Positions 147 to 7,796 of a DNA stretch of 22,923 nt are shown here, piece after piece. Made by a program: the position numbers and the translations under genes. How positions within the stretch are numbered: position 1 is the stretch's first letter; each line of letters begins with the position of its first letter. Under the pieces are notes generated by a model. That model was not told where the DNA came from. It did not search any database and saw only the letters and a program-made list of their open reading frames with translations. This DNA is from a virus: the IMG/VR virus record IMGVR_UViG_3300029922_000840. One strand, written 5' to 3'.

Positions 147-1202
147 TTATTTTCTTAAGCCGTTGTACCTAACTACTTGTTCTTTCCAGTGAGTTGATGT
201 CTGAACATGGCCTTTACGCACCCATTTCCCCACTAAACGTCTAAAATCCCCAAATTGAAAAGCAGCGGCAGGTCGGATAACGAACCCCTCTTGGCGGTTT
301 AAGTCAAGCGAGGCACTGAGCTGGCTCACGAGGCTATCTGACCACAACCCCCTGTATAAAACCGGGACTACTGGAAGATGGAGCAGGGTCGCATACTCAA
401 CGGTATCATCCCATGACAGGCATTTCAAATTCTCCCAGATGCCGAAGATGTAGAAGTACCCCTCTAGGTCGGTGTACTCGATGGAGTGTACGGCTGTTAC
501 GTTTTCTCCACACAAGCGAAGCCCCTCCGGGATATCGTGGGCAATTTCAGCCCAGATTCGTTTTATGAACGTGCGGGAGGGGTGAGGTTCGTAATCAAGA
601 GACCGGGCGTGCATATAGTCGTGGTACAAAGTTGTACACTCGCCGTCTAGTTTCTCAGTAGCGATAACCTCCATGCCCTGCCACTGGTCAGTGGAGGCAT
701 GGATTTTGTCATCGTCAGACGCACCGGGGGAGGTAGCGTAGTGAAATGTACGAGGATATTTTACCCGATTGGTGAATAGATGAAGGAGGGGTGCAAGCAT
801 TTTCTGCACTGGTTCTTCATCAAAAAGTTCTCCACGGAGGCGTAGTCCGCTTGGAAGAATGACGTTGCCCCACTTGTCGTAGCGGTCTTCGGGGCTAAGA
901 TGATCTGGTAGCCGAGGGGTTCCGACGTGAATAGCCGCCCGGATATCGTCGGCTGAGATAGTCGTGTTCTCCGCTCCCACATGACAGTCTGCACAGAGCG
1001 TGGCTCCGTTGTCGAGGTAGTATCCGCCATCGGTGAATAGTTTCCTTTCGATGATGTGGTGGGCAGCGTCTCCCGGCTGGCCGCAGATGACACACTTGTG
1101 CCCGTCTCTGGCGAAGACCCCTTCGCGGAACTCATTACGGGTTAGTAGTGTCGTTTCCATAGTTTTACCGAATAGTCGGGCAGTAGTCGTGGATGAAAGC
1201 AC
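147..1202 (-). CDS. Fusion protein: N-terminal HNH endonuclease motif plus C-terminal ATP-dependent RNA/DNA ligase-like nucleotidyltransferase.
   Basis: HNH signature in the first ~80 aa: CVICGQ...HHIIE...N...CADCH. The ligase part has motif I EKLDGE (KxDG), motif IV QEGFVIRP (EGxVxR) and a K-x-x-K motif GKWVRK near the C-terminus. The track start is probably GTG; an ATG (METTLL) at 1160 is an alternative start. Confidence 0.6.
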   Translation of the reverse strand: MLSSTTTARLFGKTMETTLLTRNEFREGVFARDGHKCVICGQPGDAAHHIIERKLFTDGGYYLDNGATLCADCHVGAENTTISADDIRAAIHVGTPRLPDHLSPEDRYDKWGNVILPSGLRLRGELFDEEPVQKMLAPLLHLFTNRVKYPRTFHYATSPGASDDDKIHASTDQWQGMEVIATEKLDGECTTLYHDYMHARSLDYEPHPSRTFIKRIWAEIAHDIPEGLRLCGENVTAVHSIEYTDLEGYFYIFGIWENLKCLSWDDTVEYATLLHLPVVPVLYRGLWSDSLVSQLSASLDLNRQEGFVIRPAAAFQFGDFRRLVGKWVRKGHVQTSTHWKEQVVRYNGLRK

Positions 1203-2245: not shown

Positions 2246-2274
2246 CTTATACACTAGAAATACTATCTTGTCTG
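2246..2274 (-). promoter_or_regulatory. Variant promoter-like element (CAGACA-N17-TATAAG) immediately upstream of the 311-aa gene.
   Basis: Reverse complement of CTTATACACTAGAAATACTATCTTGTCTG, followed by TAGAGGTGCAAC-ATG. It overlaps the 3' end of the upstream ORF. Confidence 0.3.
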
Positions 2275-2580
2275 AACCGTGATGAGCATGTCACACGACC
2301 CCTCATAGTACACGAGGATGTAGCGATTCCCGGCTGTCAAACCGTAGCCTGGGAAGCCCCCGTCGCCACTACCTTCGGCGCAAAGACTAAGAGCACGGAG
2401 ATTGCCTGAATCCTCACGGATGACTGTGGGGTGAATCCCATAACCACCCTGCATATGGCCGATAGTAATTATCGTGCCAGTGACGACCCTCGTAGGGCGG
2501 TTAGGGCCGAGGGTACAGCCAGTAGTAACCCCGATAAAGAGGGCTATAAAAAGCGTGAAACACACAGGAAATAAGCGCAT
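2263..2580 (-). CDS. Small secreted or lipoprotein-like protein, ~105 aa from the internal ATG.
   Basis: The internal ATG at 2580 has a strong SD (AAGGAGATTG-ATG). The product begins MRLFPVCFTLFIALFIGVTTGC, a signal peptide with a Cys at a lipobox-like position, although -3 is not canonical. The track ORF extends to a GTG at 2619. Confidence 0.5.
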   Translation of the reverse strand: MRLFPVCFTLFIALFIGVTTGCTLGPNRPTRVVTGTIITIGHMQGGYGIHPTVIREDSGNLRALSLCAEGSGDGGFPGYGLTAGNRYILVYYEGSCDMLITVQTR

Positions 2581-2647
2581 CAATCTCCTTACCATTTCCA
2601 ACATACGGTTCTCCTTCACGACAATTTTACCACCATGTCTCTGTTCA

Positions 2648-2986
2648 TTACTTCACCGCTCCTTTGGTGCCCACATAGGTCAAGGCTCCCAAGTATGCTT
2701 TCCGGTATTCGGTTGGAACCTTCTGACCACCCCGGTAAAATAGGGTGCAGACCCCGTCTTCATTGTGGCAGGTTTCGGAGATTTCACCGGGGTGCCAGAG
2801 TATGCTCTCCCAATAGCCTCCACCTGCTGCTTCGATGAAAAGAGGGTAGCCGTCTGCCTCACTGAGGATGGTTCTCTCGGCGGCATGTTCAAAATCGAAG
2901 ATAATCGCACAGCCACAGGGTAGCTTAACGTCAACCAATAGCCGGGTGCGGTGGGTAATCTCTGCCATAGGAACCCAGTCTACCAC
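2648..2986 (-). CDS. Hypothetical protein, ~112 aa.
   Basis: ORF in an operon-like array on the minus strand. The start is either a GTG with AAGG upstream or the internal ATG (MAEITHRT). No motif recognised. Confidence 0.4.
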   Translation of the reverse strand: MVDWVPMAEITHRTRLLVDVKLPCGCAIIFDFEHAAERTILSEADGYPLFIEAAGGGYWESILWHPGEISETCHNEDGVCTLFYRGGQKVPTEYRKAYLGALTYVGTKGAVK

Positions 2987-3072: not shown

Positions 3073-3858
3073 CTATAGTTGGTCTTTATGCTTAACAAGT
3101 TGATTCAACAAACAGTCATCGGCTCTTTTGTCGTTTCGTTTACGAAGAAGCACTGGCTGTACAATATGATTGCTTCGCGTGGCGTAAAGATAGCGGACTT
3201 CAACTACATCCAACTTATTCAATTGGAACTTTCCACGAAGAGACACCCCCGAGACCTCATATAGCCGTCCCCGTTCGTCGTAGACACCAATGCGAACGCT
3301 GTTGTGGCCTTCCGGGCTGGGTCCGATAACCACAGCATCTAAAGTGCGAGTGAACTTCAGCTTGAAGTGATTCCCAGAACGACCCTCACTGTAGGACTTA
3401 GCCATGTTTTTGATGACCACGCCCTCGGAATGGGACTCCAACAGGGCAATGACCAGCTTAATTTTGGCGGTATCGTCGCGGGTGGTCTTAACCGGGATGA
3501 TGCGAGGGCTGAATCCGTCGAACTCAGCATGATAGCGGGATTCGCGGTACTCGTAGGCATCGTGGATGATGGTCTCATCACCTAAAATTAGGGAATCGAA
3601 CACGTGGATGGTGCTCTTTACTAGCTCCACGTCGATGACGAATTGCTCAAGAGGGTGGGAACGAAGGGCGTTGATGAGAACCACGGGGAGGGGTTTTCCA
3701 CTCTCGCCTTCCCGGTTCCAGTTACGGATGGTTTTCCCCTGCTTGCAAATCGTCCGCCGTTCTCCGTTGAACTTCTCCTGAAATCCATAGTTGGAGTTAT
3801 GGATGAACCGCTCCAACTGCTCTTGCGTGATTTCAGTGAGTAGTTCAGACTTAATCAT
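3073..3858 (-). CDS. Minimal ATP-dependent ligase (DNA-ligase-like nucleotidyltransferase plus OB domain), 261 aa.
   Basis: Motif I EKFNGERR (KxNGxR), motif III-like FVIDVELV, motif IV EGVVIK, motif V FKLKF. The size matches small phage/viral ligases. SD GAGGCGAC-ATG. Confidence 0.75.
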   Translation of the reverse strand: MIKSELLTEITQEQLERFIHNSNYGFQEKFNGERRTICKQGKTIRNWNREGESGKPLPVVLINALRSHPLEQFVIDVELVKSTIHVFDSLILGDETIIHDAYEYRESRYHAEFDGFSPRIIPVKTTRDDTAKIKLVIALLESHSEGVVIKNMAKSYSEGRSGNHFKLKFTRTLDAVVIGPSPEGHNSVRIGVYDERGRLYEVSGVSLRGKFQLNKLDVVEVRYLYATRSNHIVQPVLLRKRNDKRADDCLLNQLVKHKDQL

Positions 3859-4106: not shown

Positions 4107-7100
4107 ATGATGCAAATTGAAAACTGGCGTGGCCTGTGGAACCTATTGACAACCTATGCGGTCAACGACATCGCGTATTATGAGGGCTCATCCTACTTCG
4201 CTTTGGACATCAACACCGGGAAAGCCCCAATCCTTGCAAACATAGGGGTTTACTGGTCTCCAGTGGCCTTAGCCGGGGAGCAGGGAATTCAGGGTCAGCA
4301 GGGCGTTATAGGCCCCACTGGAATTCAAGGTGTACCCGGAATTCAAGGGCCAGCAGGGAACCCCGGAATTCAGGGAATTCAAGGAAATCAAGGTGACCGC
4401 GGGCCTGAGGGTTTGCCCGGAATTAAGGGCGATACCGGGAGTCAGGGGATTCAGGGAGTCAAGGGCGACACCGGAATTCAAGGTGTACCCGGGGTTCAGG
4501 GAGTCAAGGGCGATATTGGCGACACCGGCCAAGGCTTAGTTTGGCGGAACACTTGGGAGGCGATTGCCACCTACAACACCTATGACTGTGTCCCCTATGA
4601 GGGAGCATCATATATCTGCCTTGCCCCCAACGTCCTGAATGTGTCCCCAGATTCGGATGATTCAAAGTGGGGCTTACTAGCGCAGGGCGGCGGTACAATT
4701 GATTGGTCGGAGATTAAAGATGTTCCTACCACGGTAGCCGGGTACGGCATCACCGACCTATCCCCCGTGGCAACGTCGGGCTCGTACAACGACCTCAACA
4801 ACAAGCCAACCTTAAACTTCGACCCGGCTGGGTCAGCAAGTACGGTACAAGGGAGTCTTACAGCGGAGGTAACAAGAGCGGAGGGGGTTGAGGCTTTGAA
4901 GGCTAACACTTCTAGCCTTGCTCCAGTTGCCTTCTCAGGGGATTACGCTGACCTGAGTGGAACACCCACCCTCGGTACCGCCGCCACTCAGAACAGCTCC
5001 GCGTTCGACCCGGCTGGTACGGCCTCTACAGTTCAAACCAACCTCACCTCGGAAACTTCGCGTGCTCTCGCGGCGGAGGGTCTGCTCGTCCCGAAGACCA
5101 CAACTATCAATGGCAAAGCCCTCTCCAGCAACGTGACCTTGGCGATAACTGACTTTGGGGGAACGCTCCCGCACGCTCAATTGCCGACTTTGCTCAGCAC
5201 CGACATTCCAAGCATCCCCGAATCACAGGTCACCAACCTCGTCAACGACTTGGCCGCAACCGAAAAGACTGCGAACAAGGGCGCGGTGAACGGCTATGCT
5301 GGCTTAGACGCTAACGGGCAGCTCTATACTTCACAGCTCCCAGCACTTGCTATTGTGAGCACCTCTGTGGTCTCCTCTCAGACTGCGATGCTGGCACTCA
5401 CAGCTCAGCAAGGTGACGTAGCTATTCGTGAGGACATCAACGAAACGTTCATCCTTGCTGCGTCTGACCCCACCCTCCTCGCCAACTGGAAGCAAATTCT
5501 CACCCCGGCATCCCCGGTACAGAGTGTCAACGGACAGACAGGAATTGTGAACCTCGCCATCCCGGCAGCTCAGGTCAATAGTGACTGGGCATCGGGGAGC
5601 GGTGTAACTCAAATTCTCAACAAGCCCACCCTCGGCACCGCCGCAGCTCAGAATTCATCTGCCTTTGATTCCGCTGGCTCTGCTGCGACAGTGCAGACCA
5701 ACCTCACCTCGGAAGTCTCTCGTGCAACCACTGCGGAAGGTCTGCTGGTTCCAAAAACAACCACGGTAAATGGTCACGCCCTATCCGCTAATGTCACGGT
5801 CTCTGCTTCTGATCTTACAACGGGAACCCTGCCTGTTGGTCAACTTCCAACAATCCCATATAGCCAACTTTCGGGCACGCCAACGATTCCTTCTGTACCT
5901 CTCACGACCATTCAAAATAATGGTGTCACGGTCACCCCCGTCTCAGGAACGGTCAATCTCATACCCGGCTCGAACGTCACCTTGACCACCTCAGGTGACT
6001 CTATCACCGTTGCCTCCACGACAACATTCTCCGCCCTGACGGGTTCCACCAACACCACAGCCGCCATGGTGGTGGGTACAGGGTCGTCTATCGCTGCAAC
6101 TGGTACTGGTACCATCACTGCTACCTCCTGCCCAACGGAGACCACCCGCGCTGAGGCTGCTGAAGCTCTCCTGCTACCTATCACCACGGCAGCCAGCACC
6201 TATGCTACTCAGACCAACCTGACGGCTGAAGTTACTCGTGCAGAGGCGGCTGAGGCACTGCTTGTGGCCAAGACCACAACAATTGCTGGCCACCCACTGT
6301 CTGGCAACGTGACTGTTGCGTATACTGATCTAACCGGCCTTCCGACTCTTGGAACTGCCGCATCACACGCATCTACAGACTTTGATTCTAGCGGTGCCGC
6401 AGCGTCGGTTCAGACAACTGTAAGCGCATCCATCTCTGCCGAGACAGCGCGGGCTGAAGCTGCCGAAGCTGTCCTTACCACAGCCGTCGCTGGTAAGCAA
6501 TCTGCCCTCGGGTACACACCAGAGAATTTGGCCAACAAGGGTGTAGCAAGTGGTTATCCAACCCTTGATAGCACAGCGCACATCCCGATCAATCAACTTC
6601 CTGCCTCTGTGCAGGGAGCAATGTCATACGTTGGTGTGTGGAATGCAGCCACCAACACTCCGGCAATTAGTAGTGGAGTAGGAACTAAGGGTTTCTTCTA
6701 CAAGGTCAGTGTTGCTGGCTCGACAACAGTTGATGGCAACTCTATTTGGCACGTTGGCGACATGCTCATCTTTGATGGAGCTGCGTGGGATAAGATTGAC
6801 AACTATGAAGCTGTAACATCTGTTGTGGGGCGCACTGGTGCAATCACTCTTAGTGAGGCAGACATCACTGGGTTGGTTGCTGACCTTGGCACACTCACTG
6901 CGGGCATCGCCGGAGAAGTAACCCGTGCGGAAGGCATTGAGGCCACGCTGGCCGCAAACCTCGCAGCGGAAGTTACAAGGGCTGAAGGTGTAGAGAGCAC
7001 ACTTGCCCCGATAGCAGGGCCACTGTTTAATGGCCCTGTTGGTATTGATGTAGCTACTCCAGATCAAGCTCTTACTCTTGCCACTGGTGATGCTGTTGCG

Positions 7101-7796
7101 TGGATGCAACCGCAGAGATTTGGGGGTGGCGGTGGTACAATAGAAGGCGGAGATACATCCGATACGGGGCTTTCCAGAACGGATGTTGGAGTTGTGGCGG
7201 TTGGTAACGGTCAACCCGGCGATACTTCTGGGTCGTTGCAGTGTGCTGTAATCCTTGCTGGTAACCTTGCCAACTCGGCAACTACTGACACTACAAACGC
7301 AGCAAATATCACAAGCGGTGTGCTGCCTCTCGCGCAAGTCCCGGCAATCCCCGTTAGCAAGACCACTGGGTTTGCCACTGTCGCCACAACTGGCACATAT
7401 AGTAGCCTCACAGGTCTTCCGGCCATCCCGGTTGTAGGAACTGTCACCCCGGTTGTAGATGGAGCCGCCTCAATAGGCAGCACTGGTAAATGGGCAGACG
7501 CTGGACACATTCACCCAACTGACACCAGCCGTGTGGCCACCAGTACCACGGTCAATGGTCACACGCTAAGCAGCAATGTGGTTGTTTCCGCTTCCGACCT
7601 CACAACTGGCACGCTGCCCGTTGCCCAGCTCCCCACGATTCCATACAGCCAGCTTTCGGGCTCCCCCACTTTGGGTAACGCCGCACCTTTGAATGTGGGA
7701 ACCACAAGCGGAACTGTGGCGGCTGGGGACGACCCTCGGCTTAACGCTGCGGTATCCACCGCGAGAGCTGTAGCTTTCGCCATTGCCTTCGGTTAA
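4107..7796 (+). CDS. Long tail fiber / receptor-binding protein, 1229 aa, with a collagen-like domain and multiple diverged tandem fiber modules.
   Basis: SD AAGGGGA before the ATG. There are 29 uninterrupted Gly-X-Y triplets (aa 57-143). Repeated modules include PTLGTAA.QNSSAFD.AG.A.TVQTNLTSE..RA..AEGLLVPKTTT.NG.ALS.NVT and TGTLP.AQLPTIPYSQLSG.PT, and there are several AEVTRAEG.EA repeats. Confidence 0.85.
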   Translation: MMQIENWRGLWNLLTTYAVNDIAYYEGSSYFALDINTGKAPILANIGVYWSPVALAGEQGIQGQQGVIGPTGIQGVPGIQGPAGNPGIQGIQGNQGDRGPEGLPGIKGDTGSQGIQGVKGDTGIQGVPGVQGVKGDIGDTGQGLVWRNTWEAIATYNTYDCVPYEGASYICLAPNVLNVSPDSDDSKWGLLAQGGGTIDWSEIKDVPTTVAGYGITDLSPVATSGSYNDLNNKPTLNFDPAGSASTVQGSLTAEVTRAEGVEALKANTSSLAPVAFSGDYADLSGTPTLGTAATQNSSAFDPAGTASTVQTNLTSETSRALAAEGLLVPKTTTINGKALSSNVTLAITDFGGTLPHAQLPTLLSTDIPSIPESQVTNLVNDLAATEKTANKGAVNGYAGLDANGQLYTSQLPALAIVSTSVVSSQTAMLALTAQQGDVAIREDINETFILAASDPTLLANWKQILTPASPVQSVNGQTGIVNLAIPAAQVNSDWASGSGVTQILNKPTLGTAAAQNSSAFDSAGSAATVQTNLTSEVSRATTAEGLLVPKTTTVNGHALSANVTVSASDLTTGTLPVGQLPTIPYSQLSGTPTIPSVPLTTIQNNGVTVTPVSGTVNLIPGSNVTLTTSGDSITVASTTTFSALTGSTNTTAAMVVGTGSSIAATGTGTITATSCPTETTRAEAAEALLLPITTAASTYATQTNLTAEVTRAEAAEALLVAKTTTIAGHPLSGNVTVAYTDLTGLPTLGTAASHASTDFDSSGAAASVQTTVSASISAETARAEAAEAVLTTAVAGKQSALGYTPENLANKGVASGYPTLDSTAHIPINQLPASVQGAMSYVGVWNAATNTPAISSGVGTKGFFYKVSVAGSTTVDGNSIWHVGDMLIFDGAAWDKIDNYEAVTSVVGRTGAITLSEADITGLVADLGTLTAGIAGEVTRAEGIEATLAANLAAEVTRAEGVESTLAPIAGPLFNGPVGIDVATPDQALTLATGDAVAWMQPQRFGGGGGTIEGGDTSDTGLSRTDVGVVAVGNGQPGDTSGSLQCAVILAGNLANSATTDTTNAANITSGVLPLAQVPAIPVSKTTGFATVATTGTYSSLTGLPAIPVVGTVTPVVDGAASIGSTGKWADAGHIHPTDTSRVATSTTVNGHTLSSNVVVSASDLTTGTLPVAQLPTIPYSQLSGSPTLGNAAPLNVGTTSGTVAAGDDPRLNAAVSTARAVAFAIAFG
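4275..4535 (+). repeat. Collagen-like Gly-X-Y triplet array (29 triplets) encoded by a 9-bp periodic DNA repeat (GGAATTCARGG-like) carrying about 6 EcoRI sites.
   Basis: Peptide GEQGIQGQQGVIGPTGIQGVPGIQGPAGNPGIQGIQGNQGDRGPEGLPGIKGDTGSQGIQGVKGDTGIQGVPGVQGVKGDIGDTGQG. GGAATTCA(A/G)GG is visibly reiterated. Confidence 0.85.
4765..4811. repeat. Arm 1 of the 47-bp perfect inverted repeat (IR-A), shared with 12592-12638. It encodes VATSGSYNDLNNKPT in both fiber genes.
   Basis: Plus CCGTGGCAACGTCGGGCTCGTACAACGACCTCAACAACAAGCCAACC is the exact reverse complement of 12592-12638. The flanks are unrelated upstream and only ~70% identical downstream. Confidence 0.8.
7491..7517. repeat. Arm 1 of the 27-bp perfect inverted repeat (IR-B), shared with 11617-11643. 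It encodes WADAGHIHP in both fiber genes.
   Basis: TGGGCAGACGCTGGACACATTCACCCA is the exact reverse complement of 11617-11643. The immediate flanks are only ~55-60% identical. Confidence 0.8.

Follow-up and report, generated by a model that had tools for sequence, protein, structure and literature searches.

The window, meaning the whole 22,923-nucleotide stretch of viral DNA that was analysed (IMG/VR record IMGVR_UViG_3300029922_000840), carries on its minus strand a gene whose product is a predicted member of a huge-phage family, in which an N-terminal HNH nuclease domain and a connector precede an Rnl2-like, ATP-dependent RNA ligase domain at the C-terminus. The fusion gene with its parts and the annotated genes around it lie as follows.

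147..1160, minus strand: CDS of the HNH-RNA ligase fusion protein, 337 amino acids, with the stop codon at 147-149
963..1139, minus strand: HNH nuclease domain, residues 8-66 (Pfam HNH, PF01844)
765..962, minus strand: conserved connector, residues 67-132 (66 residues), with a short helix, short beta-strands and a long helix
150..764, minus strand: ATP-dependent RNA-ligase-type nucleotidyltransferase domain, residues 133-337 (Pfam RNA_ligase, PF09414)
642..653, minus strand: ligase motif I, K170-L-D-G (from the translation and the profile alignment)
1298-2233, 2263-2619 and 2648-2986, minus strand: three genes between the small DNA ligase gene and the fusion gene, with no Pfam or PHROG match
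3073-3858, minus strand: minimal 261-aa ATP-dependent DNA ligase (DNA_ligase_A_M, 38 bits)
4107-7796, plus strand: 1229-aa tail fibre with collagen repeats and a weak CBM_5_12 module (profile matches)
14830-17289, minus strand: 819-aa protein with major-vault-protein domains (Pfam MVP_shoulder, 92 bits; Vault_3, 38.8 bits)
17420-17848, minus strand: archaeal/eukaryotic-type peptidyl-tRNA hydrolase PTH2 (26 bits, cut-off 23)
17947-18855, minus strand: R2K-clade ATP-grasp protein (R2K_3, 66 bits)
19196-20182, minus strand: Ku homologue (Pfam Ku, 74 bits)
20661-21893, minus strand: rIIB-like protein (phrog_609, E=2.3e-56)

The window is phage-like, and the rIIB-like protein and the collagen-repeat tail fibre, accompanied by other phage-type genes, identify it as phage DNA; as a whole it has no DNA-level match to deposited phages. 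The maximal open reading frame in the ORF list spans 147..1202 on the minus strand and would yield 351 aa from a GTG codon. The original prediction had taken 1202 as the 5′ boundary; the start codon is instead likely to be the ATG at 1160, since gene calling on 11 metagenome contigs yielded exactly the resulting 337-aa product (P0001) and the homologues begin at the same point, and the stretch 1161-1202 is probably untranslated. In a PHROGs profile search, phrog_24030 ('RNA ligase') matched end to end (E=3.7e-112, 376 bits), the alignment running over residues 19-351 of the maximal-ORF protein and positions 3-342 of the 342-position profile and covering both domains. The Rfam scan returned no family, the PADLOC scan no defence model, and no convincing promoter or terminator was seen near the fusion gene.

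An HNH motif and ligase motifs I, IV and V had been predicted on one polypeptide, and all of them are present and are invariant or nearly so in homologues, a pattern far beyond chance. The two domain profiles first proposed for searching were both matched, PF01844 (HNH) with 28.8 bits (cut-off 21.4, E=1.3e-6) and PF09414 (RNA_ligase) with 100.2 bits (cut-off 27, E=1.9e-28), while the other suggested nuclease profile, HNH_3 (PF13392), had no match at E<=1 in Pfam. The HNH domain contains a complete Cys4 zinc site (C23, C26, C56 and C59, arranged as C23xxC26 and C56xxC59-H60) and a complete catalytic set (H34, H35, N51 and H60), and it has the beta-beta-alpha-metal fold of HNH nucleases. Among 180 homologues, the zinc and HNH positions are each kept in 169-178 sequences and the four catalytic residues in 169-176, with position 59 being Cys in 138 and His in 36; the strict HNH motif was found in 117 of the best 120 homologues. 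Some relatives, P0180 and P0159 among them, retain the zinc cysteines and have lost the catalytic His/Asn. The N-terminus matched 17 PHROG HNH families, and the NCBIfam match was confined to the HNH region of IscB, with no NCBIfam RNA-ligase model found at E<=1. The nearest HNH relatives are the DNA nucleases IscB, McrA, GVE2, TagI and Cap5. The beta-beta-alpha-metal fold, the Cys4 zinc site and the H-N-H catalytic set are shared with HNH enzymes of the McrA, IscB, Cas9 and phage GVE2 type (PF01844); however, those DNA nucleases have their own targeting domains or guide RNAs, whereas the sole partner domain here is an RNA-type ligase.

The connector had no Pfam match and no known family was found for it; it nevertheless contains seven invariant or near-invariant positions (P85, D95, W97, N99, R107, G110 and F129) and is kept where the HNH domain is replaced or degenerate, for example in P0173 and P0180. 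The ligase domain behind it comprises a pre-motif (K134-Y-P-R-T), motif I, motif III (E219), motif IV (E291-G-F-V-I-R296), motif V (K312-W-V-R315) and a conserved short tail (H318, H324, W325 and N333) in the 25 residues after motif V. K170 is the lysine predicted to accept AMP, and in a profile alignment motif I falls on the K-L-D-G motif of NgrRnl at chain residue ~170. Motif I is well preserved among the 180 homologues (K and D in 176 each, G in 179), and K170, D172, G173, E219, E291 and K312 are each kept in 176-179 of them.

The AlphaFold model of the fusion protein is confident (pLDDT 91.9, pTM 0.78), and the connector itself has a pLDDT of 87-95. The N-terminus of the model resembles the HNH nucleases of IscB, McrA and phage GVE2, and the ligase half resembles the nucleotidyltransferase domains of T4 Rnl2, NgrRnl (Naegleria) and REL1, being most like T4 Rnl2 and NgrRnl, so that the nucleotidyltransferase fold is closest to that of RNA ligases. 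A BFVD fold search gave no full-length relative. The protein ends 25 residues past motif V and has no Rnl2-type C-terminal domain; 175 residues align to full-length Rnl2 (2hvq) and 172 to the isolated nucleotidyltransferase domain (1s68). It thus differs from T4 RNA ligase 2 (gp24.1) and REL1 in lacking the Rnl2-specific C-terminal domain that marks the strict T4 Rnl2 family and, as far as the sequence tells, in a motif V of the K-x-V-R rather than the K-x-K form. It also differs from the Rnl5 ligases (NgrRnl of Naegleria gruberi and DraRnl of Deinococcus), in which an OB-like domain precedes the nucleotidyltransferase at the N-terminus, where the HNH domain and the connector are found here. 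PDB sequence searches with the protein and two profiles gave no significant ligase match: the best matches were an Aquifex ligase (E=0.004) and the IscB HNH (E~0.04), the similarity to Rnl5/NgrRnl was not significant (E~0.1-0.5 in the profile searches), and T4 Rnl2 was not listed by the profile searches.

Nuclease-ligase fusions had been regarded as unusual, a view that does not hold for this architecture, which is that of an abundant, catalogued huge-phage family (phrog_24030, with hundreds to thousands of homologue clusters). A 90%-identity database contained 3379 homologue clusters at E<=1e-5, the best 120 of which are nearly all ~335-360 aa long, 53-63% identical and located on contigs of up to 463 kb, the closest other cluster being 63% identical; a 50%-identity library contained 2617 representatives at E<=1e-3 and 486 at E<=1e-30. 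All the deposited phages with the full fusion (40-52% identity over ~95% of the length) are jumbo or huge, namely Salicola phage SCTP-2 (gene 101), Caulobacter phage CcrBL9 (gp226) with the CcrSC group, Ralstonia phage RsoM2USA, Acinetobacter phage ME3 (gp200) and two uncultured genomes of 462-485 kb, LR745208 and LR756500; haloarchaeal virus HGTV-1 carries the fusion at 30% identity. Among species-representative genomes, the full fusion was found on ~20 contigs, many of them MAG contigs of 200-430 kb that resemble huge phages, and on a 487-kb Achromobacter contig it lies beside a thymidylate synthase gene and another paralogue of the RNA ligase. The complete bacterial chromosome 1 of Leptospira sp. 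'Mane' (L016, 5986-7011) also encodes a full-length HNH-RNA ligase with 50% identity, whose neighbours belong to the normal repertoire of the cell (genes for an SPFH/Band 7 protein, a MatE transporter and a 7TM regulator of the AraC type), with no obvious prophage.

Both active sites are under selection: all their key residues are intact in 160 of the 180 full-length relatives; an HNH residue alone is lost in 13 and a ligase residue alone in 6. What the computation shows is the identity of the domains, that the catalytic residues of both are intact, that the fold is confident and that the protein belongs to the family. Iyer et al. (2021), with reference to Burroughs & Aravind (2016), mention Rnl2-family ligases of jumbo phages that have an HNH domain at the N-terminus, and place them among the jumbo-phage RNA-repair ligases (PMC7824862). 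We found no enzyme assay of any family member in the literature, and the architecture is thus catalogued and briefly described and, as far as we found, biochemically uncharacterised. The present protein, a fairly divergent new member, shares with phrog_24030 and the jumbo-phage HNH Rnl2-family ligases the two-domain architecture over its whole length and the conserved residues, and differs from them only in sequence divergence; the surrounding DNA has no deposited phage match. The original prediction was therefore right about the domains and plausible in proposing RNA repair, and wrong about the rarity of the fusion.

The ligase clade, at ~45-55% identity over residues 131-337, also occurs outside the HNH fusion. 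Stand-alone proteins of ~210 aa are found in Paenibacillus, Brevibacillus, Lysinibacillus and others, and proteins of ~520-600 aa join the ligase to a P-loop AAA_33 kinase, one of which (P0232) looks actinobacterial. In P0208 (940 aa) the ligase is fused to a type IB topoisomerase, and P0221 (2792 aa) combines it with a CCA-type nucleotidyltransferase head, a HAD_SAK_1 phosphatase, a 2H phosphoesterase and Topo IB; a Topo IB is an unexpected part of an RNA-repair polyprotein. Such partners make up the standard RNA end repair toolkit, and of the indirect arguments for RNA as the substrate of the ligase this one is the strongest. The ligase-domain tree requires ~17 gains or losses of the N-terminal module, compared with ~36 with shuffled labels; this NJ tree is crude (BLOSUM distances, midpoint root, some fragments) and was used only to judge that the module is not monophyletic. 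Because of this turnover, and because the HNH domain can be replaced or degenerate with the connector kept, the nuclease looks optional; the ligase is the constant part. Split-gene versions consisting of HNH and connector (176-250 aa) end in frameshift-like junk and were left out of the evidence. Five relatives (P0125, P0126, P0130, P0132 and P0134) reach ~530-740 aa through an insert directly after motif I (K-x-D-G-E), and the one that was scanned, that of P0125, is an intein with a LAGLIDADG endonuclease; intein insertion at an active site is typical of highly constrained catalytic sites. An intein-interrupted ClpB-like AAA protein is also encoded on the same contig as the fusion gene, downstream of the window's left edge (L003, 16781-19309).

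No neighbour gene is conserved across 25 fusion loci. A single neighbour recurs, and in four close relatives only: the small DNA ligase, which has a K-F-N-G motif I, an EGVVIK motif IV and an OB-like tail. In related huge-phage contigs it shows 43% identity, and at three related loci its synteny with the fusion gene is kept. The 311-aa gene directly upstream of the fusion gene is not conserved beside the fusion in relatives, and the 118-aa gene (2263-2619, minus strand) has, by eye, a lipoprotein-like N-terminus. The window contains no tRNA genes, and such genes were found near the fusion in 2 of 12 loci. Some of the more distant genes deserve mention in their own right. The vault-like protein, an odd possession for a phage, has deposited phage homologues only in LR756500 (462 kb) and LR756501/LR756503 (735 kb), all at 40-41% identity over the full length, and in LR756500 its gene lies ~2 kb from the HNH-RNA ligase gene. 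PTH2 adjoins the R2K-clade ATP-grasp gene, the two being further translation-rescue or modification genes in the phage. The Ku homologue and the phage's own ligase form an unusual pair for a huge phage, since Ku relatives in deposited phages are almost confined to mycobacteriophages (86 of 87 records, the other being an unclassified 'Bacteriophage').

The most likely role of the fusion protein, on this comparative evidence, is the repair of RNA breaks in phage-host conflict, with the ligase as the putative core activity; the RNA repair role follows from the place of the ligase clade in canonical RNA-repair fusions. Our best overall explanation, which we consider to have an even chance of being right, is that the HNH domain, the connector and the Rnl2-like ligase serve RNA repair, in our preferred version with both domains acting on the same broken nucleic acid. 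By the chemistry of the superfamily, the ligase would react with ATP to form a K170-AMP adduct, and by that of the family the AMP would then be passed to a 5′-phosphate end (AppRNA), after which attack by a 3′-OH would seal the break. The HNH domain would rely on a single metal ion and on H35 as the general base, and its cut in a phosphodiester would leave 3′-OH and 5′-phosphate, again as in its superfamily; these are precisely the ends required by an ATP-dependent ligase. From the context, the targets could be structured RNAs, such as tRNA cleaved by the host. By trimming or opening the broken nucleic acid the nuclease would provide ligatable ends, and the ligase would close it, and the fusion protein could thus be a self-contained repair device without a conserved partner gene.

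That both domains act on one substrate is the reading that we prefer and at the same time the least secure step, to which we give at most rather less than an even chance. On the one hand, we lean towards coupled action because the connector is conserved and ordered and no partner gene accompanies the fusion, and the fusion of the same ligase clade to Topo IB, another strand-breaking enzyme, was counted on the same side. On the other hand, the HNH kin are DNA nucleases and the ligase looks RNA-specific, so the substrates of the two domains may differ; the ligase clade works without HNH in many lineages, either alone at ~210 aa or fused to a kinase; and the HNH residues have decayed in 13 of the 180 full-length relatives. 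Ribotoxin breaks, moreover, leave a 2′,3′-cyclic phosphate and a 5′-OH, and nuclease trimming of these costs nucleotides.

The alternative that survives best, although we think it unlikely to be correct, is that two independent activities share one chain, the ligase repairing RNA cut by host RNases and the HNH domain being a DNase directed against host or competing-phage DNA. This is the reading stated by Iyer et al. 2021 (PMC7824862), and it fits the DNA-nuclease affinities of the HNH domain and its repeated loss about equally well as coupling does: the nearest HNH relatives (IscB, McrA, GVE2, TagI and Cap5) cut DNA, the ligase clade occurs without HNH in many lineages, and the HNH is often gained or lost. 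The genome of the closest deposited phage homologue, LR745208, also encodes a HAD_SAK-like phosphatase, and the HNH domain therefore need not replace end-healing enzymes. However, independent action leaves unexplained why a free-acting DNase remains attached, in hundreds of clusters, by a 66-residue connector that is both conserved and well ordered, and how the phage's own DNA would be spared.

Coupling in its strongest form, a cut-and-seal machine in which the HNH domain cuts RNA or an RNA-containing duplex beside a damaged or blocked end and the ligase reseals it at once, seems to us decidedly unlikely. It would amount to a kinase- and phosphatase-independent route of 'repair by trimming' or excision, to which the nuclease-ligase core of the trypanosome editosome bears a loose likeness; a characterised single-polypeptide RNA nuclease-ligase of this kind was not found in the literature.

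It is more doubtful still that the HNH fold is mainly a nucleic-acid-binding or clamp domain of the ligase with little or no nuclease activity. Such a domain would take the place of the C-terminal domain of Rnl2 or the N-terminal OB domain of Rnl5, both absent here, and relatives such as P0180 and P0159, in which the zinc cysteines outlast the catalytic His/Asn, speak for it. Nevertheless, the conservation of H34, H35, N51 and H60 in 169-176 of 180 relatives makes a purely structural HNH unlikely, as a purely structural module needs none of them, and nucleotidyltransferase-only forms of ~210 aa exist without any accessory domain.

We regard as very improbable a DNA end-joining system with the Ku and the small DNA ligase of the window, with the HNH trimming ends and the Rnl2-like ligase sealing nicks that end in a ribonucleotide, after the manner of bacterial LigD pathways. 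The window does encode Ku (19196-20182) and the minimal DNA ligase (3073-3858), the latter in synteny with the fusion gene at three related loci; however, this synteny is limited to close relatives, the fusion partners of the ligase clade are RNA-repair modules, and no Ku is detectable in the other deposited fusion-carrying phages. The co-occurrence with Ku across genomes that marks a LigD-like enzyme was not seen, and we rejected Ku-linked joining, as none of the 86 mycobacteriophage records and the one unclassified record with Ku has the fusion. Finally, a homing-type HNH endonuclease that landed at the 5′ end of the ligase gene and promotes its spread, one of the possibilities first raised, is hardly credible: HNH homing nucleases are common in phages and the family is a target of mobile elements, with LAGLIDADG inteins right after motif I in several homologues, yet the protein is not of the HNH_3/I-HmuI type, Pfam gave neither HNH_3 (PF13392) nor a NUMOD/AP2-type DNA-binding module at E<=1, and the in-frame fusion keeps one architecture with a conserved connector across the family, down to 30% identity in the haloarchaeal virus.

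RNA repair by the fusion protein, possibly with both domains on one substrate, invites comparison with the multi-enzyme systems of T4 (Pnkp and Rnl1), bacteria (Pnkp-Hen1) and fungi (the Trl1 ligase-kinase-CPD). It resembles them in its probable role, the resealing of RNA broken in host-parasite conflict, and in that members of its ligase clade are joined to a kinase or, in one polyprotein, to NTase, HAD and 2H modules. It differs in having no conserved operon partner and in that its own partner is a nuclease rather than a kinase or phosphatase, which makes classical healing of 2′,3′-cyclic phosphate and 5′-OH ends impossible for the fusion. The finding confirms an existing annotation class and does not change the picture; the family is large and conserved at both active sites, and the interest lies in what the nuclease does beside the ligase. 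The cultured relatives in Caulobacter, Acinetobacter, Ralstonia and Salicola phages make the family directly testable. If the two domains are coupled, the protein would be a compact break-and-rejoin enzyme for RNA, possibly a tool enzyme, and it would bear on how giant phages survive the RNA-cleaving defences of their hosts.
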